DNA from: Alphaproteobacteria bacterium
GTDB lineage: Bacteria; Pseudomonadota; Alphaproteobacteria; UBA2966
Direction of reading: 5' to 3'
Length of the DNA stretch: 64,000 bases
Assembly (NCBI GenBank): GCA_964291395.2
Contig: OZ219856.1
Location: forward strand, 864,001 to 928,000
Shown here: positions 14,252 through 38,593 of the stretch, one piece after another
Layout: every line of letters starts with the position of its first letter
Numbering within the stretch: position 1 is the first letter of the stretch
Program-made: the position numbers and the translations under genes
Notes under the pieces: model-generated
Seen by the model: only the letters and a program-made list of their open reading frames with translations
Databases searched by the model: none
Told to the model about the DNA's origin: nothing

Positions 14252-14788
14252 TCAGGGGGGTCCCAGCATGGCAGCGCATCTTGCAAGTGCGGCATCGACC
14301 GCACGTGCGTAGGCAAGCTCCTCCGGGCTGGCGGGGGAGGAAGGAACGGAAGCTGACCGGCTGGTGCCGAAACTGAACGACATGCCGCCCGCGCTTCCTG
14401 CCGTCGGAGTTCCGCCGCCTCCGACGCGCGCACTGCCGAACTGTGCCTTGGTGACTTCGCCTTCGTCGATCACCAGCTTACAGAGCACGATAATCTCGTC
14501 GCCCTCGCGGCGGCGGTCGATCACGTCGTAGCGCCAGCCGTCGCCGTAACGTTCGTTCAAGGTCCTGACGGTTTCGGAATCGGCGCTATCGGGTTCCGGG
14601 GCCCGTCGGGCCGAAGGCGGTGATGTTGCGGGTGGCTCGGTCGCAGGAGGCGGCGGGGGCGGGTCCGTGAAGGATGGCGCTCCAGCCGTGGATGCCGGTC
14701 CCGGGTAAAGCGCATCCAACTCGCGCCGGTTCCTTGCGAGCATCTCGTCGAATGCCGCCGTCGAACTCGTTCGTTTGTTGGTCGTCAT
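14252..14788 (-). CDS. Hypothetical protein: N-terminal amphipathic helix, Pro-rich linker and degenerate Rad52/Rad22-like domain
   Basis: LNERYGDGWRYDV...IVLCKLVIDEGEVTKAQFG...AYARAVDAALARCAAMLG fits the Rad52/22 core pattern and aligns with extensions on both hydantoinase B proteins. Starts 10 nt after the isochorismatase gene. Confidence 0.75.
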   Translation of the reverse strand: MTTNKRTSSTAAFDEMLARNRRELDALYPGPASTAGAPSFTDPPPPPPATEPPATSPPSARRAPEPDSADSETVRTLNERYGDGWRYDVIDRRREGDEIIVLCKLVIDEGEVTKAQFGSARVGGGGTPTAGSAGGMSFSFGTSRSASVPSSPASPEELAYARAVDAALARCAAMLGPP

Positions 14789-20213: not shown

Positions 20214-20369
20214 TTTTCTATCCTCCGTTGACCCCGCGTAGCAAGTCGATATCATGCCTTCAAAAGCGTGTCGGTGACTGGGACGGAGTCAACCTCGCTC
20301 GGCTGCTTCCGATGGTCTCGGAATGGGTCACGCGAGATCGAGATTGCGGGAAGGCGACGGTAACGAACG

Positions 20370-22430
20370 ATGGCTTGCCGACTGGGAATCGACGTTGGCG
20401 GGACGTTTACTGATCTCCTTCTGTTCGATGGCGGAACTGGCGAGATCCACCTACTGAAAACGCCGTCGACTCCGCAGGATCAATCTGTCGGCATTCTCAC
20501 GGGCGTTCGGGATCTCATTTCCCAGACCAAAGTGCGGCCTGCCGACATCCAGGGACTTCTCCATGGCACGACGGTATCGACCAACATCGTGCTGGAGGAA
20601 AAAGGAGCCAAGGTTGGCCTCCTGGTGACGGAGAACTTCGAACAGATACTTCATCTGGCGCGCTCTCAGACTCCCGGACCCCTCGCCGGTTGGATCGTCA
20701 TGCAAAAGCCGGATCCCTTGGCCGACCTCGAACTGACGCGGGGGGTCAAGGAGCGCACGAACGCGCGGGGCGACATCGTGACACCGATGGACGAGGCGCA
20801 CGCCCGAACCCTGATCCAGGAGCTGGTAGACGGCGGCGTCGAGTCGATCACGGTGTCGCTGCTGCATTCTTATGCCAACCCGGCCCACGAACAGCGGTTG
20901 AAGGCGCTCATCCGGGACGTCGCGGGCGACATCCCGGTGTCGCTCTCTTCCGAGATCCTGCCCGAGTTCCGCGAATACGAACGCACGCTCGTCACCGTAA
21001 TGAATGCCTACGTGGGCCCCAGCATGCGCCGCTATCTCAGCCGTTTCGAGGAGAAACTGCGCGGCGTCGAGTTCTCGCCCCATGTCAATATCGTGCGCTC
21101 GGACGGCGGGCTGATGAGTGTCGCCCGTGCTTCCCAGTCTCCGGTGCACACGATGCTGTCCGGACCGGCCGGCGGCGTGTCGGGGGCGGCCTTTCTTGCC
21201 GGCCTCGCGGGCCATCCCAAGGCCCTCGGGTTCGACATGGGCGGGACGTCGACCGACGTCTCTCTGATCCAGGAAGGCAAGCCGACGATCTCGCGCCAGA
21301 CGAGCCTCGGCTACTATCCGATCAAGGTTCCTTCCGTCGAAGTGCACAGCGTCGGTGCCGGTGGGGGATCGATCGCTCACGTGCCGATGACGGGGGCACT
21401 ACGGGTCGGCCCGGAAAGTGCGGGCGCCGTGCCCGGCCCGGCATGCTATGGACGCGGCGGTGACTCCCCGACGGTCACCGACGCCAACGTGGTGCTCGGC
21501 CGCCTGCCTCCTAGCTTGTTGGGGGGCGATATGGCCCTTGACGCCAAGGCGGCCGAGGAGGCGGTCGGGAAGATTGGCCGGGCGCTGGGGCTCGATCTCC
21601 ATCAAGCGGCTCAGGGCATCCTCGACATCGTCAACGAGAACATGTTCGGCGCGTTGCGCTTGGTCACGGTGCAAAAAGGTCTCGATCCCCGTGATTTCGC
21701 GCTGGTGGCCTTCGGCGGCGCCGGTCCGTTGCACGGGAATGCCATGGCCGCGCTCGCCGGTTGCTACCCCGTGATCGTACCCCCAACGCCCGGCGTGCTG
21801 TCCGCGCTCGGCTTCCTGTACTCCGACGTCAAGAACGAATTCGCGCAAACGTTCGTGCGCAATATCGACGATATCGACCCTGGCCAAGTCAACGACATCC
21901 TGACACGGCTGGGGCGCGAGGCCCGGACTTGGCTTCAGGAGGAGGACATCTCGGAGCAGAACCAGGAGCTGCAGTACGAGGCGGACGTGCGTTACTTCCG
22001 CCAGGGCTACGAATTTTCGCTCGAAGTCGACCCGGGATCGTTGATGAACGGGGGCTTGCACGATCTGGAGATGCGCTTCGGAACGGCGCACGAAAGGCTT
22101 TACGGTTTCAAGCTCGAACAGCCCGTGGAGCTTGTTAACTTACGAGCTGTCGGTACGGGCCGGGTGGACAAGGTTGAGTTTCCGGAGTTTCCACTTGAGG
22201 ATCGCGATCCGTCCGCGGCCATTGTCGAGCAGCACAGGGTCTATTTCGGCGGCAATGCCGAGCAGACCGTTATCTATGACCGCAGCAAGCTCCGTGCGGG
22301 CAACCGGATCACGGGTCCCGCCGTCGTGACCCAGAAGGATTCGACCACCATCATTCACCCTGGCCATACCGGGGAGGTCGATCAGTATCTCAACATCCTG
22401 ATTCGCCCTGACGACGACCAATTGCATTGA
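20370..22430 (+). CDS. hyuA: Hydantoinase/oxoprolinase A subunit (ATP-dependent lactamase, caprolactamase CapA/OplA-like)
   Basis: GIDVGGTFTD, HGTTVSTN, LSGPAGG, DMGGTSTD, GAGGGSI, GPESAGA.PGPACY, FGGAGPLH. Confidence 0.92.
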   Translation: MACRLGIDVGGTFTDLLLFDGGTGEIHLLKTPSTPQDQSVGILTGVRDLISQTKVRPADIQGLLHGTTVSTNIVLEEKGAKVGLLVTENFEQILHLARSQTPGPLAGWIVMQKPDPLADLELTRGVKERTNARGDIVTPMDEAHARTLIQELVDGGVESITVSLLHSYANPAHEQRLKALIRDVAGDIPVSLSSEILPEFREYERTLVTVMNAYVGPSMRRYLSRFEEKLRGVEFSPHVNIVRSDGGLMSVARASQSPVHTMLSGPAGGVSGAAFLAGLAGHPKALGFDMGGTSTDVSLIQEGKPTISRQTSLGYYPIKVPSVEVHSVGAGGGSIAHVPMTGALRVGPESAGAVPGPACYGRGGDSPTVTDANVVLGRLPPSLLGGDMALDAKAAEEAVGKIGRALGLDLHQAAQGILDIVNENMFGALRLVTVQKGLDPRDFALVAFGGAGPLHGNAMAALAGCYPVIVPPTPGVLSALGFLYSDVKNEFAQTFVRNIDDIDPGQVNDILTRLGREARTWLQEEDISEQNQELQYEADVRYFRQGYEFSLEVDPGSLMNGGLHDLEMRFGTAHERLYGFKLEQPVELVNLRAVGTGRVDKVEFPEFPLEDRDPSAAIVEQHRVYFGGNAEQTVIYDRSKLRAGNRITGPAVVTQKDSTTIIHPGHTGEVDQYLNILIRPDDDQLH

Positions 22431-22443
22431 TGGATCCGAACTC

Positions 22444-24750
22444 ATGACAGACCTCAACCCGCCGAGCAAATCGGTCTCCCTGGATGACCTTCTGAGGGCC
22501 AACAAGGACCAGTTCGACCAGCTCTTCGCCACGCAAGTGAGGGAAGTGGGGCTGGTCGGCGTCAGTCACCGCCCCGCGACAGAGGAGGATCTCATGTCGC
22601 CGAGTATGCGGACGTGGCACGACGGCGACGGCGAAGATGTGACGGCGTTTCTCAACACGCGTTTTGGGTCGGATTGGTCGTCAGAGGTTGTCGAGCACAA
22701 GGTTGAGCGCGGCGCGGTGACCGTTCTTTGCAAACTGACCGTCGACGGTGTCTCGAAGATGCAGTTCGGCTCGGCTCGTGCGAACGGCGACGAAGGCAAG
22801 GCCTTGCGGCACGCGACCAACCAGGCCCTGAAAGCCTGTGCCGCGATGTTTGCTGAAGCGGCTGTGCCCGTGGATCCGCCTGCGGCGCCTGCGCCGGAGG
22901 AACAGCTGGAGCGGCAGGGACGGGAGATGCTCGATGCCCCGGCACCCCGTGCGCCGCACCCGGCGGAGCGTCCCGGCACGCTTGATACGATCACGCTCGA
23001 CCTCATTGAGAACGCTCTCCGCAACGCCCGTCACGAAATGGACGCGGTGCTGTTCCGCTCGGCCATGTCCCCGGTTATCCGGGAACAGCACGATGAATTC
23101 CCGATGATCACAGATGGCAAGGGGCGCATGATCGTGGGGCAGTTCGGCTCCTATATCCCGGAGATGTTGAAGGAGCAGAACTTCCGGCTACTCCCCGGCG
23201 ACGTGATTCTGCAGAGCGATCCGTTCAAGTGCGGCGGCGCCATCAGCCACATCAACGACTGGATGGTGCTGGTGCCGATCTTCTACGAGAACGAAGTCAT
23301 CGGCTTCAGTTCGATGTTCGGGCACATGATGGACGTGGGGGGGCCCGTGCCCGGCAGCATGCCGACGGCGGCGACTTCGGTGTTCGGCGAAGGCCTGCGC
23401 ATTCCACCCATCAAGATCTATGACGGCGGCGCGCTCAATAAGGGTGCGCTCGACCTCATCATGAATAACACCCGCACCCCGGAGATGAACTTCAGCGATC
23501 TCATGGCGATCATCGCGGGCTGCCGGACTGGTGAGAAGCGCGTGATCGAGATCTGCGATCGCTTCGGCAAGGATATCTACCGCCAAGCGTGCGAGGCGTT
23601 GCTGGAGCGCACCAATCGCGCCATGTGCCAGCTGATCGTGCAGAATCTGCCTGAGGAGCCGCAGTCGTTCGAGGATTACGTGGACGATGACGGTCTCGGC
23701 AACGGGCCTTTCAAGCTCAAGCTGACCGTCTGGCGCGAGGGCGAGCACGCCTATTTCGATTGGACGGGCACATCGGCCCAGGCCCCGGGGCCGATCAACT
23801 TCTACCTCCACGAAGGCATGTTCAAGATGTTCATCGGGGTCTACATGATCATGGTGTTCGACCCCCAAATCCTGTTCAACGATGGTTTCTACGACCTGAT
23901 CCACGTGACCCTGCCCAAGGGCTCGCTAGTACATCCCAACTTCCCGGCACCTCTCGGCTGTCGGACCCATGCGCTGTCCCGCCAGTTCGACGTTCTGGGC
24001 GGCGCGCTCAGCAAGAAGGCTCCGGAAATGGCGACCGCTGCGGGCTACGGATCGAGTCCGCATTTCCTGTACTCGGGCACCGACGCAGACGGCCGCCAGT
24101 TCCAGCTCATGGAGATTCTCTACGGCGGTATTCCCGGCCGGCCGGTTGGCGACGGCATGGACGGGCATTCTTGGTGGCCGCTGTTCGAGAACATCCCCAG
24201 CGAATACCTCGAGAGCTACTACCCGATGCTGATCGAGAGCTACGGCAGCATCTCGGATACCGGCGGCGCGGGCCTCCATCGCGGCGGCAACGGTGTGGAG
24301 AAAGTCTACCTGTTGCTCGAAGAGGGAGAGATCTCCATCCACGACGACCGGCATGAATCGCGGCCCTGGGGCATCTTGGGCGGGGCGCCCGGTGTCTGCT
24401 CGGAGAAGTGGTTGGTACGCAAGGACGGGACGCGCGAGCCGCTCCCTTCCAAGATCGACAATGTGAAGGTGCGAAACGGAGACCGCATCGTCTTCCGTAC
24501 GGCGGGCGGCGGTGGATGGGGGGATGCGCTCGAGCGTGAATCCGTGAAGGTCCGTAACGATGTCGCGCGCGGTCTGTTGTCGCGCGAGGCGGCGCGGGAG
24601 AGCTACGGCGTTGTCATCTCAGAGAGCTTCGATGTCGACGAGACGGCGACGCGGGATTTGCGTGAAACCATGCGGGCTGGACGGCCGCCGTTGCCCTTGT
24701 TCGATTTTGGCAGGCAACCGACGTGGGGCGGAACCACCGCTTCTGCGTAG
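22444..24750 (+). CDS. hyuB: Hydantoinase/oxoprolinase B subunit (CapB-like) with a ~180-aa N-terminal extension containing a Rad52-like domain
   Basis: Catalytic part begins at LDLIENALRNAR.EM...SPVIREQHD, then DPF.CGG.ISH.ND, GHMMDVGG, EGLRIPP, TAGGGGWGD. The extension contains FLNTRFGSDWS...VLCKLTVDG...ALKACAAMF. Confidence 0.92.
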   Translation: MTDLNPPSKSVSLDDLLRANKDQFDQLFATQVREVGLVGVSHRPATEEDLMSPSMRTWHDGDGEDVTAFLNTRFGSDWSSEVVEHKVERGAVTVLCKLTVDGVSKMQFGSARANGDEGKALRHATNQALKACAAMFAEAAVPVDPPAAPAPEEQLERQGREMLDAPAPRAPHPAERPGTLDTITLDLIENALRNARHEMDAVLFRSAMSPVIREQHDEFPMITDGKGRMIVGQFGSYIPEMLKEQNFRLLPGDVILQSDPFKCGGAISHINDWMVLVPIFYENEVIGFSSMFGHMMDVGGPVPGSMPTAATSVFGEGLRIPPIKIYDGGALNKGALDLIMNNTRTPEMNFSDLMAIIAGCRTGEKRVIEICDRFGKDIYRQACEALLERTNRAMCQLIVQNLPEEPQSFEDYVDDDGLGNGPFKLKLTVWREGEHAYFDWTGTSAQAPGPINFYLHEGMFKMFIGVYMIMVFDPQILFNDGFYDLIHVTLPKGSLVHPNFPAPLGCRTHALSRQFDVLGGALSKKAPEMATAAGYGSSPHFLYSGTDADGRQFQLMEILYGGIPGRPVGDGMDGHSWWPLFENIPSEYLESYYPMLIESYGSISDTGGAGLHRGGNGVEKVYLLLEEGEISIHDDRHESRPWGILGGAPGVCSEKWLVRKDGTREPLPSKIDNVKVRNGDRIVFRTAGGGGWGDALERESVKVRNDVARGLLSREAARESYGVVISESFDVDETATRDLRETMRAGRPPLPLFDFGRQPTWGGTTASA

Positions 24751-24857
24751 GGTTTGGATTTGTGACGGATACGTCTTGCACGGTGAGTGGTGTGGCGGGG
24801 AGGATCGGATTCCAAATGCTGCGGCAATAAGGAAAAGCGAAAGAAGGTGCAGGGATA

Positions 24858-27674
24858 ATGCTGGAAATTGGGATTGCGCTGGCCGTCTCGGCGATCGTCG
24901 TTATCGCCATCCTCTACATCATCTCCATCTGGGTTTATAAACGCGCGCCCGCGAACATGGGGTTCATACGAACGGGCTTTCTCGGTACCAAGGTGTGCCT
25001 GGGTCGTGGCGCCATCGTGTTGCCCGTATTCCATGAAGTGAGCTGGATCTCGCTTGAAACGATCAAGCTGATTGTCAGCCGCTCGCGGGAGCAGGCAGTT
25101 CTGACTTCCGACAAGATCCGGGTGGACACCGTCGCCGAACTCTACGCGCACGTCGGTAGGACCGAAGAAAACCTGCTGACCGCGAGCCGCAGCCTGGGTG
25201 ACAAGACCTTCGATGCCGAACAGGTGCGCAACCTGCTCGAGGCGAAAGTCGTCGGCGCCATTCGCAGCTATGCGGCGACAAAGACCCTCAATGAACTGCA
25301 CGAGAATCGGGATGCCTTTGCCCAGCAGATCAAGGAGTCCGTCCTCGACAGCTTCGAGGCCAACGGCCTCGTACTCGAGGAAGTGACCATCGTGACGCTG
25401 GAGCAGTCCGGCAAGGACTACTTCAAGTCCGACAACGTATTCGACGCCGAGGGCCTGAAGATCATCACCGAGATCACGTCCGACGCGCGGCGCAAAGTTC
25501 ATGACACCGAGAAGCGCACCACCGTCGCCATCCGTCAGAAGGACCTCGACACTCAGCTCGAGCTGCTGGAGATCGAACGCGAGGAGGCGTTCGCGCGGGC
25601 CGGTCAGGACAAGGCCGTTGCCAACGAGCAGGCCCTGCAGCTCGGCCAGAAGCAGATCTACATGCTGGATCAGCGCAAGGCGGTCGAGGAGAAGGAAATC
25701 CAAAACGAAGTCGTTCTGGAGCAGCTGCGAACCGACCGTGAGATCGCCATCACCGAGGAAGCGCGCAAGCGCGAAAGCTCGGACATCGAAAAGACCCTGA
25801 AGCTCGAGCAGGAACGTCGTGACAAGGAAATCGCGCTGATCGCCAAGGCGCGGGAGGAGGAACTCACCAAGATCCAGCGCAACCTGGCGCTCGAGAAAGC
25901 GGAGAAAGACCGCGAAATCGAGTTGATCGACAAGGCCAAGGAGCAGGAGCTTGCGGAGATCCGCAGGCGGCTCGCGCAGGAGAGTGCCGACAAGGACCGC
26001 GAGATCGAGCTGACGGCGAAGGAGCGCGAGCGACAGCGGGCCGAGATCGATCGAGCGACGGAGGTCCTGAAAGCCGAGGAGGCGGCCCGGGATGCGCGCC
26101 ACCAAGCCGGGGAGGAAGTCTCGCGCTCCATGCGGCGGCGGGCGCTTGAGACGAGGCTTTCCATTCTCGAGGTTGAGAAGGGCGAAGCCTTCGCCGAGGC
26201 GCAGCAGGAGCGGGAAATCTCCGACGAGCGCGCCCGCGTCCTCAGCGAGAAACAGCGCTTCATTCTCGATCGCCGCCTGGAGGTCGAGCAGGAGGAAATA
26301 GACAAGGAACTCGCCATCGAGAAGGCCCGAATCCAGAAGGAAGCCTCCGTCATCGAGGAGACCAAGCTTCGAGAGGCCGCCGACATCCGCCGTCAGCTTG
26401 CCCGCGAGCAGGAGGAGCGCGACCGCGAGATCGCCCTCGTGGCCAAGGCGGAGGAACTGGAGAGGGCCGAAATCCGCCGCCGGCAGAGCCAGGAGCAGGA
26501 AGATCGGGAGCGTCAGATCGTGCTCGTCGCCAAGGAAGAGGAACTGCGGCGTGCCGAGGTACGGCAAGCCCTTGCCGTCGAGCTCGAAGAGCGTGAGCGG
26601 GAGATTCGGCTCATCGCCAAGGAGCAGGAGCGCGAACGGGCGGACATCCAGCGCTTCCTCGCGCGCGAATTGGAGGAACGCAGCCGCGAGATCGCGTTGA
26701 CGGAGAAGACGAAGGAGCTTGAGGAAGTCGAGGTCCAACGTCTCCAAACGACGGCCGAGAAGGAGCGGGCAGGACACGGTGTGGAATCGGTGCGCATCAT
26801 CGCCGATGCCGAGCGCCAGAAAGAGATCGAGCGCATCGGCGCCGAGCGGGAGGCCGAGGCGCGTCGGATCGAGGAGGAGAACAATGCGCAGATCTCGCGC
26901 ATGCACATGATCACCCAGGCCGAGGCGCGCAAGCTTTCCGCCGAGCAAGAAGCGGAAGCGACTCTGACGCGGGCCCAGGCGGTGAGCGATGCCCAGAAGA
27001 TCACGGCCGAGGGCATCGAACGCGAGGCGGGCGCACGGGGCCGAGCCGAGATGGAGATCGAGTCGCTGCGCGTAGTCAATACGCAGCGCCGCTTCGAGGC
27101 CGAGGCCACGGGTATCGAGGCGAAAGCCGAGGCGCTGGCGAAGTACAACGAGGCGGCCACGTTCCTCGAACTTGCCAGGCTGCACATCGAGGCGGAACGC
27201 GACATCCACATCGACCAGGCCAAGGCCATGGGTAACGCCCTGTCAGGTGCGCAGATCCGCATGTACGGCGGCGGCGACGGTACCGTCGACACGATCCGTG
27301 GGATGTTCACCCAGGGATTCGCGCTCGGCGAGATTCTCGAAGGCGTCGCCCAGTCGCTGCCCGAGGGCCTGCGGGCCCGCTTCGCCGACAACGGCATCCG
27401 CGGTCTGTTCGGCCGGCCTTACCAAGCCGGTCAGTTCCGTGACTCGGTCGAGCTGTTGACGGGTATGGTGCGGTCGACGATGCGCACGCGGCGCGACCGG
27501 GACATCCCGTTCAGCCAGGCTCTCGATCGGCTGGCCGAGTACGCCGGTGATGACGAAGTGCAGGGCCGGGCGGTTGCGTTGCTGCGGGAGGCGAATGAGG
27601 GCGGCGTCTTCGACGACGTGCCGTTCGAGACCGTATGGGCGCTGATGCAGGCTATCGCCACGCCTTCTGACTGA
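24858..27674 (+). CDS. Giant flotillin-like SPFH (band 7) protein with expanded 29-aa-repeat helical stalk
   Basis: N-terminal TM helix, SPFH domain (IRTGFLG.KV...GAIVLPVFHE...TSDKIRVD...NGL.LE.VTI...N.FDAEGL), about 550 aa of E/R/K/A-rich helix, and a flotillin-type C-terminal AEA.GI.AKAEA segment. Confidence 0.88.
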   Translation: MLEIGIALAVSAIVVIAILYIISIWVYKRAPANMGFIRTGFLGTKVCLGRGAIVLPVFHEVSWISLETIKLIVSRSREQAVLTSDKIRVDTVAELYAHVGRTEENLLTASRSLGDKTFDAEQVRNLLEAKVVGAIRSYAATKTLNELHENRDAFAQQIKESVLDSFEANGLVLEEVTIVTLEQSGKDYFKSDNVFDAEGLKIITEITSDARRKVHDTEKRTTVAIRQKDLDTQLELLEIEREEAFARAGQDKAVANEQALQLGQKQIYMLDQRKAVEEKEIQNEVVLEQLRTDREIAITEEARKRESSDIEKTLKLEQERRDKEIALIAKAREEELTKIQRNLALEKAEKDREIELIDKAKEQELAEIRRRLAQESADKDREIELTAKERERQRAEIDRATEVLKAEEAARDARHQAGEEVSRSMRRRALETRLSILEVEKGEAFAEAQQEREISDERARVLSEKQRFILDRRLEVEQEEIDKELAIEKARIQKEASVIEETKLREAADIRRQLAREQEERDREIALVAKAEELERAEIRRRQSQEQEDRERQIVLVAKEEELRRAEVRQALAVELEEREREIRLIAKEQERERADIQRFLARELEERSREIALTEKTKELEEVEVQRLQTTAEKERAGHGVESVRIIADAERQKEIERIGAEREAEARRIEEENNAQISRMHMITQAEARKLSAEQEAEATLTRAQAVSDAQKITAEGIEREAGARGRAEMEIESLRVVNTQRRFEAEATGIEAKAEALAKYNEAATFLELARLHIEAERDIHIDQAKAMGNALSGAQIRMYGGGDGTVDTIRGMFTQGFALGEILEGVAQSLPEGLRARFADNGIRGLFGRPYQAGQFRDSVELLTGMVRSTMRTRRDRDIPFSQALDRLAEYAGDDEVQGRAVALLREANEGGVFDDVPFETVWALMQAIATPSD

Positions 27675-27691
27675 TGTGATACGAGGCGCCG

Positions 27692-28810
27692 ATGGCGGAG
27701 CACGACGTCGTCCTTGAACACGTCGACAAGACCTTTCCCGGCGGTGTCCGGGCGGTCATCGACTTCAACGCCGAGATTGAGCATGGCGAATTCGTTGCCA
27801 TGCTGGGGCCGAGCGGCTGCGGCAAGACCACGACCCTGCGCATGATCGGCGGGCTCGAGGAGGCGACCTCGGGGAAGATCTATATCGCCGGGCAGGACGT
27901 CACCGACCTGCCGCCGTCGCATCGGGACACCGCGATGATGTTCCAGAGCTTCGCGCTCTTTCCTCACCGGACCGTTCTCCAGAATGTTGAGTTCAGCCTG
28001 AAAATGAAGGGCATGGAAAAGATTGAGCGGGCGCGCCGCGTCTGGGAAATGGTCGAAATGGTCGGACTCGGGGAACTCGCCCATCGCCGGCCGCACGACC
28101 TCAGCGGCGGACAGCAGCAGCGTGTGGCACTCGCCCGGGCGCTGATTGGGCGGCCGACGGTGTTGCTGCTCGACGAGCCCTTGGGCGCGCTCGACTTCAA
28201 TCTGCGTCAGGCCATGATGGTGGAGCTCAAGAAGATCCAGCGCGAGCTCGGCATCACCTTCATCATGGTCACGCACTCCCAGCAGGAAGCGCTGTCGATG
28301 GCCGACAAGGTCATCGTCATGAGCGACGCGGTGATCCAGCAGATCGGCACGTCCCGGGAAATCCACGAGCATCCACGCACCAAGTTCGTAGCCGAGTTCA
28401 TCGGCAACAACAATCTGCTTAAAGGCACGATCAAGTCGCGCAGCGGCTCGATGGTGTTTGTGGAGTCGGAGGACAATCTCTTCTACGTGCGCATTCCCGA
28501 AACCATGCCGCACGTGGAGATCGGCAAGGAGACCTATTTCTCGGTTCGTGCCGATCTCATGCACACCGGAGATCACCCGGATATGGCCAACCGGGTCGAA
28601 GGGTCCTACGTGACTACGGAGTTCATGGGTTCCCTTGAGACCGATGTGTTCGAGGTGGGGTCGAACACTATCGTGCATGTGGAGCAGCACCGCAGCGTCG
28701 CGGACCATGTTTACCAGATGGGTGAAAAGGAGACGATCTGCTGGCCAGCGGACGCCGGCGTGCTATTGGAAACCGTGACCGGCGTGGCGGAGCGGGCGGA
28801 GGCGGAGTAG
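27692..28810 (+). CDS. ABC transporter ATP-binding subunit (PotA-like)
   Basis: GPSGCGKTT, FQSFALFPH, LSGGQQQRVALARAL, LLLDEP, and a C-terminal TOBE-like region. Confidence 0.93.
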   Translation: MAEHDVVLEHVDKTFPGGVRAVIDFNAEIEHGEFVAMLGPSGCGKTTTLRMIGGLEEATSGKIYIAGQDVTDLPPSHRDTAMMFQSFALFPHRTVLQNVEFSLKMKGMEKIERARRVWEMVEMVGLGELAHRRPHDLSGGQQQRVALARALIGRPTVLLLDEPLGALDFNLRQAMMVELKKIQRELGITFIMVTHSQQEALSMADKVIVMSDAVIQQIGTSREIHEHPRTKFVAEFIGNNNLLKGTIKSRSGSMVFVESEDNLFYVRIPETMPHVEIGKETYFSVRADLMHTGDHPDMANRVEGSYVTTEFMGSLETDVFEVGSNTIVHVEQHRSVADHVYQMGEKETICWPADAGVLLETVTGVAERAEAE

Positions 28811-28910
28811 AGGATTGGCAGCGAGGCTTCGCGGTAATATACCGGGATAATGAGTCTGTGGTATTGGTTCAAATCCAACGGTGGAATTCCAAGGCCAGGG
28901 GTGCGACACG

Positions 28911-30188
28911 ATGAATCTTACCGATGCCGACAAGCGGAAGCTCGATGGCGGCGAAGGGCCGGCCGTTCAGCATGCCATGGAGCACTTGCTCAAGATGGGC
29001 GAGGCCTTTGACGCCGAGGAGATGGTGGACCTTCACACGGTGCATGTGTTCTCGGACTACCGCACGGTCGGCGACGGCGGAGTCAACTTCTACGAGAATC
29101 TGGTCGATCTGGGTGGCCACATTTCGCTCCCGTCCTCATGTGAACCCATGTCCATGGATCGTAATCACAATGACCAGTTCGACTGGCCGGAAGGATACGA
29201 GGAAGGTCAGCAGAGGATTGTCGACGCCCTCGCGACGCTCGGCGTTCAGCCCACCTTCTCCTGCACTCACTACCTGAACGCCAACGTACCCAAATTCCAG
29301 TCGAACATGGCCTGGGTCGAGGGCAACGCAACGGGGTTCGCCAATACCGTGATCGGGGCCCGCGGCAACCGGGAGGACGCGGTTACCAGTCCGCTGGCCG
29401 GTATCGCCCGACGCATCCCCAAGTACGGCATGCTGGACCCCAAGAACCGGACCGGTGATTGCCTGGTTGAGATCGATCCGAACCTCATAGAGCGCATCGG
29501 CGGTGACGGGCGGCGCACGGCGGACTACGAGGCGCTCGGCGCTGTCATCGGCGACTTCGCGTACGACCGTATCCCGGTGGTGACGGGCCTGCCCGACTAC
29601 ATGCAGAACGAAGAACTGAAGGCCTTGGTGACCGCTTGTTCGCCGGCCATGACGACGACGTTGATGCTGCTCGTCGGCATCAGCCCGGAGGCGCGAACCC
29701 TTGAAGAGGCGTTTGGCGGCAAGGTACCGAAAGATGTAGACACCATTCAGGTCACCGAAGATGACCTGCGGGAAATGTATGGCCAGCTCGAGCAGACAAC
29801 CAAGGAGGATGTCGACATCGTCATCTCCGGCTGTCCCTTCAAGACCTTGCAGGAGGTCCAAGAGCTGACCGAGCAGCTTGGCGAGCAGAAGGTGGCGGAC
29901 GGCGTCAAGTTCTACATATTCACCGACCGCATCACCTTCAACATGGCGAAGGACATGGGACTGGTGGAGAGGATCGAGGCCGCCGGCGCCCTTCTCACCA
30001 CCGATACCTGTAGCTGGTGCATGCCTGTCGAGACCATGTTCGGCCCCGACAAGGTCATCGCCTCCGACAGCATGAAGATGCGACGCCTGCTGGCCGGCGA
30101 CGGCAAGCCGACGTGGCGCTACGGCACCCTCACCGACGTGGTGGATGCCGCCGTCACGGGTAAGTTCAAGCCGAGCCGTTGGAATTAG
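28911..30188 (+). CDS. Aconitase X large (catalytic) subunit, copy 1
   Basis: LDGGEGPA...GEAFDAE, TFSCTHY, AWVEGNA..FANTVIGARGNRE, GCPF, DTC, DS.KM. Start ATG 28911. Confidence 0.85.
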   Translation: MNLTDADKRKLDGGEGPAVQHAMEHLLKMGEAFDAEEMVDLHTVHVFSDYRTVGDGGVNFYENLVDLGGHISLPSSCEPMSMDRNHNDQFDWPEGYEEGQQRIVDALATLGVQPTFSCTHYLNANVPKFQSNMAWVEGNATGFANTVIGARGNREDAVTSPLAGIARRIPKYGMLDPKNRTGDCLVEIDPNLIERIGGDGRRTADYEALGAVIGDFAYDRIPVVTGLPDYMQNEELKALVTACSPAMTTTLMLLVGISPEARTLEEAFGGKVPKDVDTIQVTEDDLREMYGQLEQTTKEDVDIVISGCPFKTLQEVQELTEQLGEQKVADGVKFYIFTDRITFNMAKDMGLVERIEAAGALLTTDTCSWCMPVETMFGPDKVIASDSMKMRRLLAGDGKPTWRYGTLTDVVDAAVTGKFKPSRWN

Positions 30189-30228
30189 CCCTGGCACGAT
30201 CAAGCCCGGGGAACCGAGGAACTGAATT

Positions 30229-30657: not shown

Positions 30658-30704
30658 GACCGATCTTCCGGGTTCGGTTGCGGTCGGTACGAGGAGGCGA
30701 GTTC

Positions 30705-31982: not shown

Positions 31983-32011
31983 CGGGCGTTGGGTTTTCGC
32001 GAGGATCGGGC

Positions 32012-33379: not shown

Positions 33380-35347
33380 CTAAAGCTCTCGCCCCACACG
33401 GTGACCGTCGACGATCGCGAGTTCGATGTCCCGCGGCTGATAGCAGTCGCCGATGGCGTAAACCTCGGGAAACTGATCCTTGAGTTCCTGATAGAGCGCA
33501 TCGTCGGGCTCTCCCCCGGCGGCCAGAACCACGGTGTCGACGTTCTCTATGGTGCGCGGTTCCCAGGTGACGACGTTGTAGACGTCGACGGAGTTCTCCA
33601 ATACCTCCCAAACGCCCGTGAACGGCGTCAGCGCGACACCCTTCTTGAGCAGACTCTCCGTTAGGTTGTGCCATGCCGGGCCCGGCATATTCCGGCCGAC
33701 AAATTCCAGCCCGGTGACGACCTCAACGTCTCGTCCCTGGTCCACCAGGTATTCCGCGACGGTCGGTGCTTCGGCACGGCCTAAGGTGTCGACGACCAGA
33801 ATCCGTTGGCCGATGGGGGCATTGCCCAGCAGGACTTGTCTCGCGCTCAGCACATGCTTTTTGTCGACGCCCGGTACCTCGGGGCGAAACGCGGTCGAAC
33901 CTGTTGCGATGACGACCGCGTCCGGTTCTTCAGCCGACAAATCTTCCTCTCCTGCCTCATGGGCCAACCGCACGTCTACGGCCAGCTTCCGAAGCTGACG
34001 TTCGAAGAAGAAGATGATTTCCTCGAAGATCTCCCGAGCCGGTGTCCGCATCACCAAATTGACCTGACCGCCCAGGCGCTGCCCCTTCTCGAACAAGATC
34101 ACCTCGTGCCCGCGTTCGGCCGCGACACGAGCTGCCTCACAGCCGGCCGGTCCCCCACCCACGATGACGACTTTCCTCTCGGACTCCGCCGGCGGCAGTT
34201 CCGACCAGTGCAGCTCCCGTCCAGTGACAGGGTTGTAAATGCAGCCGACGCCCATGCCGAGGTCGACGTGGCCGACGCAGCTCTGGGTGCACGCAATGCA
34301 GGTTCGGATATCGTCGGTCCGCCCCTCCCGGACCTTGTTGGGCCAGTGAGGATCGGCAATGAGCACGCGAGCCATGCCGATGATGTCGGCCTTGCCTTCC
34401 TTGATCATGCCGTCCGCCAGAGTCGGGGAATCGATGCGCCCGGTGCCGACCACGGGAAGCGTCGTGGCTTCCTTCAGTCCCGCTGGAAGATGAGCGAACT
34501 GGCCCGGCTTGTAGTAGTGGGACGGCCAATGCTGGCGGCCGCTCCTCGGACTCGCCACCAAGCCCTGCCACATGTTGAAGTAGTCGACCTTCCCCGCGTT
34601 CTCGATGAAGCCGACCATCTGCTTGTAGTCGTCGAGCCCCAGACTGTAATCGACGAGATCATCATAGAAACGGATGCCGAGGAGACGATCGGGTTTGAGG
34701 GCATCCCGCACGGCGTCGATCACCTCGCTCAGGAAGGTCATCCTTTCCTCTAGGGTGTCGCCACCATATTTGTCGTCGCGGAAATTCGCCTGGGCGTTGA
34801 GGAAGTTGGAGAACAGATAGTCGACGCCAACCGCGAGTTCGACACCATCCATGTCACCCCGCACGACACGGTCCGCGGCCATACCAAACTGTTCGACGAC
34901 CTGCTCGACTTCAGCAGTAGACATGGCGTGGGGCATGAATTGGGAGGAGGAGAAATCAGGGGCGGGTACTGCGGACGCCGACACGACTCGGCTTTGCAGG
35001 AACCCGGCCTCGGTCGGGCGCCGCCCACGGTGGCCAAGCTGTGCCAGTATGGGCACGTCGTGGGTGTGGGTGGCCTCGGCAAACTTCTTGTAGAATTCGG
35101 TAATGCGTTCGTCGTAGCTGCAAATGTCGCGTGCGTGGTCGCCATCGTAGTGGGGCACCGTATGGCCGGTGACGATGATCCCGGCGCCACCCTTGGCGCG
35201 CTCGCGGATGTAGGCGACGTATTGCTCCGTAGGAATTCCGTCTCCGCTCTTGAACTGGGCGCCGTGGCCAGTGTTCATGATCCGGTTCTTGATCGTGTAG
35301 GTTCCGACCTTCAGAGGACAGAACAGGCTGGGAAACGGGTTTGTCAT
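33380..35347 (-). CDS. Old-yellow-enzyme-like FMN/[4Fe-4S]/FAD oxidoreductase (TMADH/DgcA/StcD-type architecture)
   Basis: ERAKGGAG, QLGHRGR, N.RDDKYGG.LEERM.F, CIACTQSC...C cluster motif, VGGGPAG.EAAR FAD site, AIGDC..PR. Confidence 0.88.
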   Translation of the reverse strand: MTNPFPSLFCPLKVGTYTIKNRIMNTGHGAQFKSGDGIPTEQYVAYIRERAKGGAGIIVTGHTVPHYDGDHARDICSYDERITEFYKKFAEATHTHDVPILAQLGHRGRRPTEAGFLQSRVVSASAVPAPDFSSSQFMPHAMSTAEVEQVVEQFGMAADRVVRGDMDGVELAVGVDYLFSNFLNAQANFRDDKYGGDTLEERMTFLSEVIDAVRDALKPDRLLGIRFYDDLVDYSLGLDDYKQMVGFIENAGKVDYFNMWQGLVASPRSGRQHWPSHYYKPGQFAHLPAGLKEATTLPVVGTGRIDSPTLADGMIKEGKADIIGMARVLIADPHWPNKVREGRTDDIRTCIACTQSCVGHVDLGMGVGCIYNPVTGRELHWSELPPAESERKVVIVGGGPAGCEAARVAAERGHEVILFEKGQRLGGQVNLVMRTPAREIFEEIIFFFERQLRKLAVDVRLAHEAGEEDLSAEEPDAVVIATGSTAFRPEVPGVDKKHVLSARQVLLGNAPIGQRILVVDTLGRAEAPTVAEYLVDQGRDVEVVTGLEFVGRNMPGPAWHNLTESLLKKGVALTPFTGVWEVLENSVDVYNVVTWEPRTIENVDTVVLAAGGEPDDALYQELKDQFPEVYAIGDCYQPRDIELAIVDGHRVGREL

Positions 35348-35369
35348 GAGGATGCGGGGCGGCCTGTGT

Positions 35370-36197
35370 CTAGCGCGCTCTCCTGTAAAGGATCGTGTAG
35401 ATGATCACGAACAACGCGATCATCAGCAACGAGAAGATCGTCGAGGCCGTGCCAAGGGCAAACAGGGTCGGGCGGATGCGCTGGGTCATTGAGGCGTTGA
35501 TATCGAGCGGCAGGGTGTTGAACTCCCCCGACAGGAGGGTCGTTCGCGCGAACTCGTCGTAGGAGAGCGTGAAGCCGAACAGGCCCGCGGCGACGATCCC
35601 CGGCAATATGAGCGGGAAGGTCACCTCCTTGAACACGGTCCATTCGTCGGCCCCCATGTCCCGGGCCGCCTCCTCCAGCCCGCCGTCGAAGCGGTTGAAG
35701 ACCGCCATCATGACGAGAAAACCGAACGGCAGGGTCCACACCACGTGGACGCCGAGCGCCGAGGACCACCACGCCGGCGGAATGCCGACCTCCTTCAAGA
35801 GCGTGGCGAGGCCGAGGCTGAGCAGGATTCCGGGCACCATCAGCCCGGCCATGATGGTGTAGAACAGCACGCCTGAACCCGCGAACCGCTTGCGGAAGGC
35901 CATGGCCAGCATGGTCGAGAACAGCGCCGTGACAGCCGTGACGATGAGCGCCAGGATCAGTGAACGCAACAGGGCGCCCTGCAGGTCGCCGACGGTCGAC
36001 GGCTCGATCAGCTTCTCCCACCAGTAGAGACTGACGCCGCGCATCGGGAAGCTGGTGCCGCCGCGGCGCCCTTGGAACGAGAGCACGAACATGGCGATCA
36101 TCGGTCCGTAGATGAAGATCAGGAAGAGCGCGTAGTAGACGCTGTAGCCCGTCTTGATCCAGGTCCGACGCCGCCGTTCCCGTGTCCATCGCCGCAT
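35370..36197 (-). CDS. ABC transporter permease (PotC-like)
   Basis: EEAARDMGA EAA loop, GFTLSYDEFART, six TM segments. Confidence 0.92.
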   Translation of the reverse strand: MRRWTRERRRRTWIKTGYSVYYALFLIFIYGPMIAMFVLSFQGRRGGTSFPMRGVSLYWWEKLIEPSTVGDLQGALLRSLILALIVTAVTALFSTMLAMAFRKRFAGSGVLFYTIMAGLMVPGILLSLGLATLLKEVGIPPAWWSSALGVHVVWTLPFGFLVMMAVFNRFDGGLEEAARDMGADEWTVFKEVTFPLILPGIVAAGLFGFTLSYDEFARTTLLSGEFNTLPLDINASMTQRIRPTLFALGTASTIFSLLMIALFVIIYTILYRRAR

Positions 36198-36198
36198 G

Positions 36199-37182
36199 TC
36201 AGAGCTCCTTTCGGATGTCGACGATCTTCAGGATGACCACCACGCCGATCATCATCGAGAGCATCAGCATGAGCGCGTTCACCGCCGCGAAGGGGTAGTT
36301 GGCGATCGCGTAGTAGTTGAGGATGACGGTGCCCGTGGTGCTGGTCTTGCCGCCGTAGACCACGACGGCGGTCGCGAACTCGCCCATGATCATCACGAAG
36401 ATGAAGATCATGCCGATGGCGACGCCGGGCAGGGACAGCGGTCCGATGATTTCGCGGAACACCTGGAAGGCCGAGGCGCCCATGTCGCGGGCCGCCTCGA
36501 GGATGGCCTGATCGATCTTGGCGAGCGAGAAGAATATCGGGCCGACGCACAACACGACGTAGAGCTGCACCAGCGCCATGGTGTAGCCGAATTCCGAGTA
36601 CAACAGGATGCCGACCGGCTTGTCGATGATGTCGAGGCCCATCAGCATCTTGTTGAACAGGCCGCGCCGTCCCAGCATGGGGATCCAGGCCACGGCCCGG
36701 ATGAGATAGCTCGTCCAGAAGGGCACCATGCACAGCAGGAAGAGTGCGAGCTGCCACTTGAAGCTCTTGACCTGCATCGCCAGGAAGTAGGCGATCGGAT
36801 AGCCGATGACGAGGCACAGGACCATCACGACCAGCGCGAAGTAGAACGTCGATCCCAGCGTCCGGATAAACACGCTGGGGCGCAGGAAGTTGTCGTCGCC
36901 CGGGATGAAGAACCCTTCGTTGTGGAAATACTCGCCGTAATGATGGAGCGTGACGTCCGGCTCCATGCCGTGTCCGCTCGACGTCCAGAAGCTGAAGACG
37001 ACAATGCTGATCAACGGGATGACGAGGAATACGATGAGCCAGATCGTCGCCGGCGCGATCAACCATCCCGTGGGGAACCCGGCTTCGCGCCTGAATTGCT
37101 TTGCCTCGCCGGCAGTCGTCGGTGGGGTCGGCTGCGAGCCGATGAGGCCTCCGTGGTGTCCGTTGACGACTTGGTCGACCAT
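36199..37182 (-). CDS. ABC transporter permease (PotB-like)
   Basis: IGYPIAYFL, PFWTSYLIR, EAARDMGA. Start ATG 37182 (alternative GTG 37191). Confidence 0.92.
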   Translation of the reverse strand: MVDQVVNGHHGGLIGSQPTPPTTAGEAKQFRREAGFPTGWLIAPATIWLIVFLVIPLISIVVFSFWTSSGHGMEPDVTLHHYGEYFHNEGFFIPGDDNFLRPSVFIRTLGSTFYFALVVMVLCLVIGYPIAYFLAMQVKSFKWQLALFLLCMVPFWTSYLIRAVAWIPMLGRRGLFNKMLMGLDIIDKPVGILLYSEFGYTMALVQLYVVLCVGPIFFSLAKIDQAILEAARDMGASAFQVFREIIGPLSLPGVAIGMIFIFVMIMGEFATAVVVYGGKTSTTGTVILNYYAIANYPFAAVNALMLMLSMMIGVVVILKIVDIRKEL

Positions 37183-37233
37183 CGGTGTCACCTAGCCTCG
37201 TCCACCAAACCGTCCGGAAGCGGAGCGAGAAGA

Positions 37234-37294
37234 ACGGGCCGGCACGGCACCAGCCGTCCGGCCCGTCTGCTAGGTCTCGGGATTCGGTCCCGAG
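37234..37294 (-). other. Two GC-rich intercistronic stem-loops after the solute-binding protein gene
   Basis: acgggccggcacggc-acca-gccgtccggcccgt (37234-37266) and ctcggga-ttcgg-tcccgag (37276-37294). This is the usual position for mRNA-stabilising hairpins. Confidence 0.5.
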
Positions 37295-37306
37295 CGCGTC
37301 GTTGAG

Positions 37307-38593
37307 TCAGGCGCTCAGGAACTCCGTCCAACGCTTCACCAGGTAGTCGTTCTCGTCCATGAGCGAGTTCCACACGGCGATGTTCTTGAAGCGGTCCCAA
37401 TAGGATCCGCCGTCCCGAATCTCGCCTTCCGGCACGATGATCGTGCCGAATGGATCCGGCAGCTCCTTGGCCGCGGGCTTGCCCATGTACCAGTAGTCCC
37501 ATTCCTCGGGCTCGAGGAATTTCTTGACGTTGTCAGGCACCGACATGTAGTAGCCCTGCCGCGCCACGAACGCACCCGCCCAGCCGTCGAGCCACCAGTT
37601 GACGTACTCGTAAGCCTGATCGAGGGCCTTGCCGGTAGCCTTCGCCGAAATCGAGAGACAACCGTGCCAGCCGCGCATGCCTTCCTTGGGGAAGGCGTAA
37701 ATGCAAGGCACGCCTTCGGCCTTGATGGCGGTCACGGCCGGAGACCACATGCTTTCGAGGACGACCTCGCCGCTCACCATCAGGTTCACGGACTGGCCGA
37801 AGGTCTCCCAGAAAGCCCGGAAATGACCTTCTTTCTTCTTTTTGATCAGGAAATCGATGAGGAAATCGATCTCCTCCCGGGTCATGTTGCCCTTGTCCTT
37901 GAACTTGCGGAGACCCAGGGCCTCGACGCCCATGGCCGCGTCCATGGTGCCGATCTGGGGGACGTTCAAGAGAGCGACCTGGCCTTTGAAGTCCTCGCTG
38001 AAAAGCTCGGCCCAGCTGTCGATCTTCCGGCCCGTCTCCTCCGGGTTGTAGCCCATCGAGTCGGCATTGTGCCAACCGGGCACTGCGGTGATGTATCGCG
38101 ACGGGCCCTCGACGCGGTCGCCGTTCTCGTCGATCCAGAGGTGGCGGAACGGCGCATCGCCCTGACCGACATTCGAATCGGGGGTGAGCCTGCCCGTCTT
38201 GCACAGGTCCGTGATCGCATCCCACTGCTTGATACGCCTGGTATCGATGGGTTGCCACACCTTCGCCGGGACCATGACGTCGAAATCGTTGTAATAGCCT
38301 TCGGCGACCTCGTACTGATCGTTCTGGTTCAGCATCTTGCCGAACATGGCGCCATACCCGAGCGCTTGGCCGCGAATGGGAAACCCGAGGTCCTTGGAAG
38401 CCTGTCCCTGGATTTCGTTGATGATACTGACACCGAGTCCGATCGTGCGGGTTGGATCGGCCGCGCGAACGATGTTGGGAAAACCCGTGATCGCGCCGGC
38501 GACCGCGGTTCCCGCCGCCGTGCCGACGAACTGGCGGCGCGTGAGACCCGCCTTACGGACCGGTGTGGGCGTCTTTTGCCGTTTCTTGGCCAT
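37307..38593 (-). CDS. ABC transporter solute-binding protein (PotD/F-like) with Tat signal
   Basis: TRRQFV twin-arginine signal, NADSMGYN, FRAFW, SMWSPAV, AYEYVNW, RDGGS...WNSLMDEN. Confidence 0.9.
   Translation of the reverse strand: MAKKRQKTPTPVRKAGLTRRQFVGTAAGTAVAGAITGFPNIVRAADPTRTIGLGVSIINEIQGQASKDLGFPIRGQALGYGAMFGKMLNQNDQYEVAEGYYNDFDVMVPAKVWQPIDTRRIKQWDAITDLCKTGRLTPDSNVGQGDAPFRHLWIDENGDRVEGPSRYITAVPGWHNADSMGYNPEETGRKIDSWAELFSEDFKGQVALLNVPQIGTMDAAMGVEALGLRKFKDKGNMTREEIDFLIDFLIKKKKEGHFRAFWETFGQSVNLMVSGEVVLESMWSPAVTAIKAEGVPCIYAFPKEGMRGWHGCLSISAKATGKALDQAYEYVNWWLDGWAGAFVARQGYYMSVPDNVKKFLEPEEWDYWYMGKPAAKELPDPFGTIIVPEGEIRDGGSYWDRFKNIAVWNSLMDENDYLVKRWTEFLSA

Follow-up and report, generated by a model that had tools for sequence, protein, structure and literature searches.

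The long flotillin gene and its product

The window analysed here is a stretch of 64,000 nucleotides (nt) from contig OZ219856.1 of an Alphaproteobacteria bacterium, and it carries at 24858..27674 a gene for an unusually long flotillin. What is new in this protein is a predicted wall helix that is modular, variable in length among orthologues and roughly three-fold extended, encoded within a conserved operon of enzyme and transporter genes. The gene and its parts are as follows.

24858..27674, forward strand: long flotillin gene, one open reading frame (ORF) of 938 amino acids plus stop, with a Band_7 match and 35% identity to E. coli YqiK
24867..24938, forward strand: N-terminal membrane helix, residues 4-27, then K28 R29, read from the sequence
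24996..25400, forward strand: SPFH/Band_7 domain, residues 47-181 (Pfam PF01145, E 2.7e-12, 47.5 bits against a cut-off of 23.6)
25566..26165, forward strand: block A, residues 237-436, the wall head 'LEIEREEAF' and four 29-residue copies (78/200 residues identical to block B)
25734..26081, forward strand: the four 29-residue copies of block A, residues 293-408 (domains of a repeat hidden Markov model (HMM), 35.6-40.8 bits)
26166..26765, forward strand: block B, residues 437-636, a second wall head 'LEVEKGEAF' and further copies (self-comparison)
26334..26768, forward strand: five 29-residue copies of block B, residues 493-637, the first degenerate (repeat HMM); the most copy-variable array among orthologues
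26769..27143, forward strand: last part of the wall helix, residues 638-762, rich in Ala, Glu and Gly like ordinary flotillins (hhalign to YqiK, AlphaFold2)
27156..27281, forward strand: cap helix, residues 767-797, then the segment 'AQIRMYGGGDG', residues 798-808 (AlphaFold2; near-invariant in the family)
27282..27671, forward strand: family-specific C-terminal region, residues 809-938, with a helical bundle at 859-934 (AlphaFold2 model)

The N-terminal membrane helix is thus followed by the SPFH domain and then by ~560 residues of proline-free helix (residues 205-762). By the positive-inside rule, applied to the membrane helix and the K28 R29 behind it, the bulk of the protein would be cytoplasmic. 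An AlphaFold2 monomer model was made for residues 601-938 from a 42-row alignment, with a mean predicted local distance difference test score (pLDDT) of 75.0. Residues 602-762 form one helix, uninterrupted at the 'AGHG' site; a break at 763-766 leads into a cap-like helix at 767-797, a low-confidence loop at 795-811 spans 'AQIRMYGGGDG', and helices at 809-851 are followed by a small helical bundle at 859-934 (pLDDT 77-89). An earlier note on this DNA, made from the letters without database searches, had proposed an additional helical domain at the C-terminus, and the model bears this out; a Pfam search of this region gave no match at E <= 0.01. The elements of the model come in the same order as in the human flotillin cage, where, in the excerpt of the structure paper (PMC11260169), the wall helix leads to a cap helix, then to a beta-strand and the C-terminal domain; by analogy with that excerpt the 'AQIRMYGGGDG' segment is a candidate cap beta-strand. 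The SPFH domain, the cap helix and the 'IRMYGGG' segment are the best-conserved parts of the protein.

By its sequence features, the protein is a YqiK-type bacterial flotillin. PF01145 matches above its gathering score, and BLASTP against E. coli YqiK gave 35% identity over 466 columns (E 5e-60), an alignment that includes the wall head after the SPFH domain; YqiK 'LEIEQQEAF' matches the heads of both blocks. The membrane anchor, wall head, Ala/Glu-rich C-terminal helix and cap helix typical of YqiK/FloT-type flotillins are all present. The flotillin assignment of the earlier note therefore holds, and all ten positions that it gave are in frame, each starting the peptide quoted for it. The FloT equivalog of NCBIfam, NF058507, scored 33.9 bits against a cut-off of 700, and we class the protein as a FloT relative, not an equivalog. 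An NfeD/YqiJ-type partner is common beside bacterial flotillins without strictly defining them. The earlier note saw no NfeD gene nearby, and neither NfeD (PF01957) nor YqiJ_OB (PF07290) has a match anywhere in the genome, which is 98.1% complete. The genome holds three further SPFH genes, one stomatin-like and one adjacent HflK/HflC-looking pair (C1:1583236-1583754; C3:108677-110142), so the long flotillin is an addition to these and not a replacement.

The protein had been described as about twice the normal length. It is longer than its relatives, at 1.7 times E. coli YqiK (553 amino acids), not quite twice. In a library clustered at 50% identity, the entire long family is one representative, and the next relatives are 30-38% identical and 480-743 amino acids long; the earlier note had allowed that ordinary YqiK-like flotillins might share the length and repeat count, and these relatives have neither that length nor the 29-residue period described below. 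Three apparent short forms of 804, 613 and 661 amino acids were rejected as frameshifted gene calls. On the opposite strand, the G+C-rich, Glu/Arg-rich repeats are overlapped by an 868-amino-acid open frame (24603-27209, reverse strand), and antisense frames at related loci reach 1325 amino acids. These frames read as a by-product of G+C-rich, Glu/Arg-rich repeat coding, not as genes.

Internal repeats and block duplication

When residues 221-720 were compared with themselves (mean BLOSUM62 score per offset), the top offset was 200 (score 1.10, 30% identity) and the second 29 (score 0.86, 28% identity), with lower peaks at 229, 258 and 58. The best offset in 200 shuffles had a mean of 0.12, a standard deviation of 0.06 and a maximum of 0.38. 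Blocks A and B (residues 237-436 and 437-636) align without gaps at 78/200 identical residues (39%), which confirms the internal duplication of 200 residues that had been proposed, and they are 51.8% identical in DNA. DNA identity at in-frame offsets of 87 nt and 600 nt is 0.437 and 0.436, compared with 0.329 +/- 0.024 for all in-frame offsets.

All eight repeat heads listed in the earlier note are real, and the repeat HMM added a ninth, degenerate copy at residues 493-521 that had been missed. Identity among the nine copies runs from 21 to 62% in protein (mean 40%) and from 39 to 66% in DNA, and Tandem Repeats Finder reported no 87-nt array in the DNA. What is exact in the 'exact' repeats described earlier is the period of 29 residues; to judge from their divergence, the copies themselves are old. 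The C-terminal half of the protein aligns with ordinary flotillins (hhalign of residues 603-792 to YqiK 327-472, probability 97.6%, E 2.6e-12), and the profile-profile comparison places the last 29-residue copy on YqiK 'KSIAIAAKS', which indicates that the repeat unit descends from a stretch that is single in ordinary flotillins. Together, these comparisons show how the predicted wall helix was lengthened to ~560 residues (residues 205-762), about three-fold the usual, by two events: a tandem amplification of the 29-residue unit and a duplication of a block of ~200 residues consisting of the wall head and repeats.

Repeat number among orthologues

Repeat number was compared across orthologues, as the earlier note had suggested, and ranged from 5 to 13 copies in proteins of 804 to 1023 amino acids. 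Of 8000 candidates scored in a word-index search, 919 were relatives at E <= 0.001, and length classes were taken from 121 sequences, namely the 120 matches listed and the query: 907-914 (12 sequences), 937-946 (50), 965-966 (14), 994-996 (35), 1023 (9) and 890 (1). All four anchors used to locate the variation were found in 89/121 of these, the other 32 being dropped where the anchor pattern failed. In all 89 the first segment has 176 residues and the last has 158, and the second-array stretch between them measures 204 (11 sequences), 233 (19), 234 (1), 262 (14), 291 (35) or 320 residues (9). At 78 further loci, taken from one-genome-per-species contigs that are all metagenome-assembled genomes, the first array varies as well, its end anchor lying at residue 352, 381 or 410 and the totals at 804-965 amino acids. 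Across this wider set there are 2-4 copies in A and 156-261 residues in B, and the two lengths are unmatched. The repeat HMM counted 5 copies in the shortest proteins and 12-13 in the longest.

Alignment of 187 distinct relatives with the window protein gave 147 indels within residues 205-800, of which 138 are multiples of 29. The remainder are -76 (twice; 76 = 58 + 18), -18, -11, a -14/-15 pair in one protein that sums to 29, -9, and +5 (twice). In their first 430 residues, proteins of 965, 994 and 1023 amino acids share 93-100% identity, and three copies within one orthologue are identical; such differences in copy number between otherwise near-identical proteins indicate that the number is still changing. 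Four of the 1023-amino-acid orthologues among the matches listed carry a precomputed Pfam hit to PF09199 beside Band_7.

Continuity and packing faces of the wall helix

Proline is absent from residues 200-834 in 23/23 aligned sequences. The glycines of the window protein at 418, 442, 639 and 641 are present in only 4-22% of these sequences, and conserved glycine occurs only at residue 263 and at 719, 728 and 752 onward, the last three named positions being invariant. With no conserved Gly or Pro at residues 264-718, there is no conserved turn across 455 residues, and this Gly/Pro analysis suggests that the helix is continuous across the junction of blocks A and B. An alternative is that the helix kinks or folds back, the chain running, for example, up through block A, down through block B and up again at its end, so that the wall would be thicker, multi-layered or domed and the cage wider or sturdier, though not three times taller. 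The homologous 200-residue blocks are out of 29 phase by 3 residues, which would permit a change of direction, and both the four glycines of the window protein and a dip in pLDDT to 66-70 around residues 631-650 could mark a bend. Against this, those glycines are unconserved, the region is free of proline, AlphaFold2 runs a single helix through residues 602-762, and array A has 176 residues throughout the 89 anchored sequences, in which array B spans 204 to 320, with A and B also unmatched in the wider set. Because the block lengths vary independently, an A/B hairpin is unlikely, and we give folding back in general little credence.

A profile of 478 distinct repeat copies has the consensus D-R-E-I-A-L-(I/V)-A-K-A-x-E-x-E-x-A-E-I-x-R-x-L-A-x-E-x-(E/A)-E-R. 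On a wheel of eight turns its apolar positions fall as follows.

236-310 degrees: the large hydrophobics I4, I/V7, L15, I18 and L22
25-62 degrees: an alanine stripe, A5, A16, A23 and A27
112-137 degrees: L6, L/R13 and L/V/R24

The repeat thus has two packing faces ~170 degrees apart, as a helix flanked by neighbours on both sides would require. In the excerpt of the solved flotillin structure, 44 helices stand side by side in a one-layer wall that has no heptads and is held by charge pairs (PMC11260169), and the two faces agree with such a wall. Among ordinary flotillins, no sequence period of E. coli YqiK rises above shuffles, and 45/111 relatives of ordinary length have a period at z > 4, with a best lag of 11 in 29 of them, 22 in 4, 18 in 4, 33 in 3 and 29 in only 1. 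Ordinary bacterial flotillins therefore tend to an 11-residue period in the predicted wall helix (3.67 residues per turn). The long clade has 29 = 11 + 18, or 3.625 residues per turn, and the comparison points to a real shift toward straighter helices. One ordinary-length relative of 684 amino acids has a very strong 55-residue repeat (z 25). Literature linking flotillin or SPFH with 'hendecad' or '11-residue' was sought, and there was none among the matches listed.

The same profile bears on two other forms that the helix could take. In the first, two to four chains would make a fibrous parallel coiled coil, or the chains would form a filament; instead of closing into a cage, the protein would serve as a stalk or ruler and hold its C-terminal domain, along with the partners of that domain, at a defined spacing from the membrane. 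SF-assemblin provides a precedent, its 29-residue repeat being read as four heptads plus a skip residue in the excerpt available (PMC2119799); the strongest hydrophobic positions of the flotillin repeat (4, 7, 18 and 22) fit part of an a/d pattern, and a quantised length would suit a ruler. However, half of the expected a/d positions (11, 25 and 29) are charged, a second conserved face lies opposite (L6, hydrophobic in 99%, and the Ala stripe), and the parts that close the cage in solved relatives, the SPFH domain, cap helix and 'IRMYGGG', are the best conserved. We consider this arrangement doubtful, about on a par with folding back. The second is a charged single alpha-helix of the ER/K type, a spacer stable by itself without helix-helix packing. 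The helical region is indeed 26% acidic and 21% basic and has no proline, but 22% of it is Ile, Leu, Val, Met or Phe, and positions 4, 6, 7, 18 and 22 are hydrophobic in 76-100% of the 478 copies. Since these positions are conserved and the count of opposite-charge pairs at i/i+4 shows no enrichment (59, with 51.5 +/- 5.9 in shuffles), a single charged helix is the least credible of the alternatives weighed here.

A conserved operon

The flotillin gene is the third of four genes that lie on one strand with gaps of 13, 107 and 17 nt, in the order hydantoinase A, hydantoinase B, flotillin, ABC ATPase. This arrangement had been missed in the earlier note.

20370..22430, forward strand: hydantoinase/oxoprolinase A-type subunit (HyuA), operon gene 1 (Pfam Hydantoinase_A, Hydant_A_N and Hydant_A_C)
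22444..24750, forward strand: hydantoinase B-type subunit (HyuB; Pfam Hydantoinase_B at residues 181-694)
27692..28810, forward strand: PotA-like ABC transporter ATPase, 17 nt past the flotillin stop (Pfam ABC_tran)

The enzyme subunits come closest to caprolactamase and N-methylhydantoinase but stay under the equivalog cut-offs; the best NCBIfam for HyuA is caprolactamase alpha, at 525 bits against a cut-off of 1000, and the ATPase reaches 340 bits with PotA, below the cut-off of 482. We searched the 78 loci, which come from Alpha-, Beta- and Gammaproteobacteria and SAR324, with the window proteins by tblastn, scoring each gene where the contig left room for it. HyuB lies upstream in 70/71 loci, HyuA upstream on the same strand in 66/68, and the ABC ATPase downstream on the same strand in 76/76; an ORF-based count on 60 loci agrees. 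The flotillin therefore sits in a conserved four-gene operon, which is new here. A literature search joining 'flotillin' and 'hydantoinase' found nothing, and no SPFH gene beside hydantoinase A/B genes appeared among the literature matches listed.

The counts also speak to a reading in which the repeats drift neutrally in a flotillin that works like any other, with no special meaning in copy number or operon. Copy number does differ between otherwise identical proteins, and the orthologue with three identical copies is what recombination-prone repeats would be expected to give. The window repeats, however, are old (39-66% DNA identity) and yet follow a profile that is strongly conserved across several classes, no clade member with <5 copies was seen, and the operon neighbours are retained in 66-76 of the 68-76 loci that have room for them. 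We consider neutral drift highly improbable, only slightly ahead of the single charged helix.

Candidate parts of an importer lie farther downstream.

35344..38593, reverse strand: permease-size ORFs 35344-36189 and 36199-37191, and a solute-binding protein 37307-38593 (Pfam)

The solute-binding protein matches SBP_bac_8 (E 2.9e-12); BPD_transp_1 matches one permease-size ORF weakly (E 0.0013) and is absent from the other. At two related loci a corresponding trio of 275, 330 and 424 amino acids directly adjoins the ATPase on the other strand, and by this the 35344-38593 trio is probably linked to the operon ATPase. A terminator scan gave terminator-like matches in the window that all lie inside ORFs. 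Directly after the ABC ATPase, on the forward strand at 28881-32440, are two consecutive pairs of genes for the large subunit and swivel domain of aconitase X.

28881-30188 with 30229-30657, forward strand: first aconitase X pair
30678-31982 with 31421-32440 or 31989-32426, forward strand: second aconitase X pair

A second hydantoinase A/B pair follows on the reverse strand (44370-46445 and 42147-44333), and ahead of it stands an isochorismatase-family gene (46462-47181, reverse strand) that mirrors another such gene at 14799-15512, which stands beside a Rad52-like protein described below. The stretch from 14 to 47 kb looks like one catabolic island.

A Rad52-like domain on the enzyme

The operon HyuB has ~180 residues ahead of its catalytic domain, and its matches to PDB sequences start at residues 178-182. 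The extra part consists of a Rad52-like domain (residues 1-137, at 22444-22863) and a Pro/Ala-rich linker (residues 138-178). In order, it has the conserved motif S-L-D-D-L-L-x-x-N-K-x-Q-F-D, a variable spacer, the Rad52/Rad22-like core and the linker. Pfam Rad52_Rad22 scores 19.1 bits in the window HyuB and 26 bits in an orthologue against a cut-off of 20.3, and a protein atlas gave the same Rad52 lead. Among the matches listed (120 of 173), all carriers of the domain are hydantoinase B proteins of ~770 amino acids. The genome has exactly three copies.

22444-22863, forward strand: copy 1, the N-terminus of the operon HyuB
14252..14788, reverse strand: copy 2, a stand-alone 178-amino-acid protein beside an isochorismatase-family gene (30% identity, E 4e-14; hmmsearch 131 bits)
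42147-44333, reverse strand: copy 3, at the C-terminus of this second HyuB

In copies 1 and 2 the N-terminus bears the same short motif and then a variable linker, an arrangement reminiscent of a docking tag, and the occurrence of three copies would fit a shared module for docking or oligomerisation. The Rad52-like domain and the C-terminal 138 residues of the flotillin occur in the identical 14/301 genomes of the class, a count in which related genomes are not independent, and 287 genomes lack both; in 13/14 the domain and the flotillin tail lie within ~5 kb. A complex prediction of flotillin residues 809-938 with HyuB residues 1-140, made from separate alignments, scored 0.00 against a mark of 0.32, which carries no weight either way.

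These observations allow a more specific proposal, in which the four-gene operon would build a membrane-attached compartment: a very tall cage around the cytoplasmic face of the importer, with at least one ATP-dependent ring-opening enzyme held inside through the Rad52-like docking domain and the number of modules setting the height of the lumen. The proposed recruiting domain, with its short amphipathic motif at the N-terminus, is found in this genome on HyuB-1, HyuB-2 and the stand-alone protein. We regard the compartment as a long shot. If true, this would be a first among SPFH cages: a defined enzyme cargo, loaded by a tag-based rule, with a logic like that of encapsulins and bacterial microcompartments.

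Occurrence and transcripts

Most of the matches to near-identical DNA come from runs that carry the label sponge metagenome (20 rows, 14 coded studies). Positions 22000 to 29000 of the window are present at about half of the sampled words in many such runs, and one run covers the stretch with ~2% differences. This suggests a widespread sponge-associated lineage with strain variants diverging by ~2%, and the organism is apparently an uncultured proteobacterium associated with sponges. Contigs from two sponge metatranscriptome runs of one study carry pieces of the locus with 0-2 differences, including 24730-24983 (the hyuB-flotillin spacer and the start of the gene) and, inside the gene, 25635-25964 and 26502-26668; stretches without contig cover are uninformative.

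A proposed taller flotillin cage

We suggest that the very long wall helix forms a much taller SPFH cage that operates with the proteins of its operon, and we put the probability of this at roughly 0.55. A much taller cage appears to be the best reading of the length of the helix, its continuity and its packing faces. Like other SPFH proteins, the flotillin would assemble as a closed cage on the cytoplasmic face of the inner membrane, with a wall made of one layer of parallel side-by-side helices, in which the Ile/Val/Leu face of each helix would pack on the Ala/Leu face of its neighbour and charged residues would join the helices. As 29 residues are eight turns, each added module would lengthen the wall by ~4.3 nm and leave the parts above unrotated, so that the SPFH ring and the cap would stay in register. 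Fully extended, ~560 residues would measure ~84 nm, by simple arithmetic at 0.15 nm per residue. The excerpt of PMC11260169 gives 186 residues for the human flotillin wall helix, in a cage 22 nm high, and 44-189 residues for the wall helices of the SPFH family. To judge from gene order, the cage would cooperate with the three other operon products, the ATP-dependent hydantoinase/lactamase-type pair and the PotA-like importer ATPase, and would most likely fence off a patch of membrane where the substrate enters and is processed.

A number of observations weigh against this proposal. The cage, its height and its lumen are read from sequence and one monomer model, and a cage of 80 nm would be large for a bacterial cell. 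A sequence search of solved structures with the flotillin gave 0 matches, and the family profile matched only a spurious peptidase T (E 0.0089) and no SPFH chain; the C-terminal profile likewise found nothing real among solved structures. Searches with the entire model of residues 601-938, which takes in the C-terminal bundle as one part and begins after the SPFH domain, gave no Foldseek match at E <= 0.001 and, in VIA-align wide, only generic long coiled coils (Z <= 8.1). The likeness to solved flotillins thus rests on family membership. As to the geometry, the block offset of 200 equals 7 x 29 - 3, which leaves arrays A and B out of a common 29 phase, and the hydrophobicity harmonic at 3.625 is weak (power 5.8 against 21.9 for 29/10). 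The earlier note had taken 29/8 = 3.625 to mean straight side-by-side helices; the two faces ~170 degrees apart and the shift from the 11-residue period favour that idea, and the harmonic is weak because there are two such faces and not one hydrophobic seam.

Unequal recombination between repeats yields multiples of 29 automatically, so the indel spectrum alone is no proof of selection for helical phase. The informative indels that are not multiples of 29 (-76 twice, -18 and -11) are few and come from related genomes, and three indels (-9 and +5 twice) break the phase. The link to the operon proteins is one of gene order. Upstream of hyuA, a promoter scan picked out a single site at 20228-20255, which chance would account for (1 against 1.3 expected), and the metatranscriptome contigs offer a weak hint that the long gene is expressed, one that DNA carry-over in the RNA libraries could also produce.

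The family addresses two questions, what bacterial flotillins contain and how the length of the wall helix sets the size of the cage. Orthologues form a natural length series of 5 to 13 eight-turn modules, sometimes in otherwise identical proteins, and so offer a direct test of wall length against cage height. The operon names candidate clients, a hydantoinase/lactamase-type enzyme pair and the ATPase of an ABC importer, which bears on the contents of bacterial flotillins. In addition, the straighter periodicity of 29, compared with 11 in ordinary flotillins, may be what permits extension of the wall.

Comparison with known systems

The long flotillin shares with E. coli YqiK and other FloT-type flotillins the membrane anchor, the SPFH domain, the 'LEIE..EAF' wall head, the Ala/Glu-rich helix and the cap helix. 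It differs from YqiK in its length (938 against 553 amino acids), with a 29-residue array and a 200-residue duplication that YqiK lacks, and from ordinary flotillins in its extra C-terminal helical bundle and its different, conserved operon. In E. coli, yqiJ adjoins yqiK, whereas the window genome has no YqiJ/NfeD match. The major vault protein also builds a cage that is very tall and thin-walled, the wall height being set by a repeated module, with an SPFH-like shoulder and a cap helix; its wall modules are beta-rich, however, and the particle is not membrane-bound. A similarity between the long helix of our model and the vault cap helix (Z 7.4) was set aside as not meaningful, being tied with many unrelated coiled coils.

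The same family architecture as in the human flotillin-1/2 cage is expected, with an SPFH ring, a single-layer wall, a cap helix and a beta-strand, as laid out in the excerpt of PMC11260169; against the 186-residue wall and 22-nm cage given there, the window flotillin has ~560 helical residues, read from its sequence. SF-assemblin and beta-giardin have the same exact 29-residue period, eight turns, in a long helical rod (PMC2119799, excerpt). SF-assemblin is an unrelated cytoskeletal protein of eukaryotes whose repeat is read, in that excerpt, as four heptads and a skip in a two-stranded coiled coil, whereas half of the core positions in the window repeat are charged and a second packing face is present. 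Finally, a marine flotillin-rhodopsin cluster, as described in the excerpt of PMC10308929, resembles the operon in having a flotillin on one strand that is apparently co-transcribed with a membrane protein and others across distant lineages. The flotillin of that cluster has the usual size, being encoded by a 1,977-bp gene, and is partnered by a rhodopsin and further genes, not by hydantoinase subunits and an ABC ATPase.

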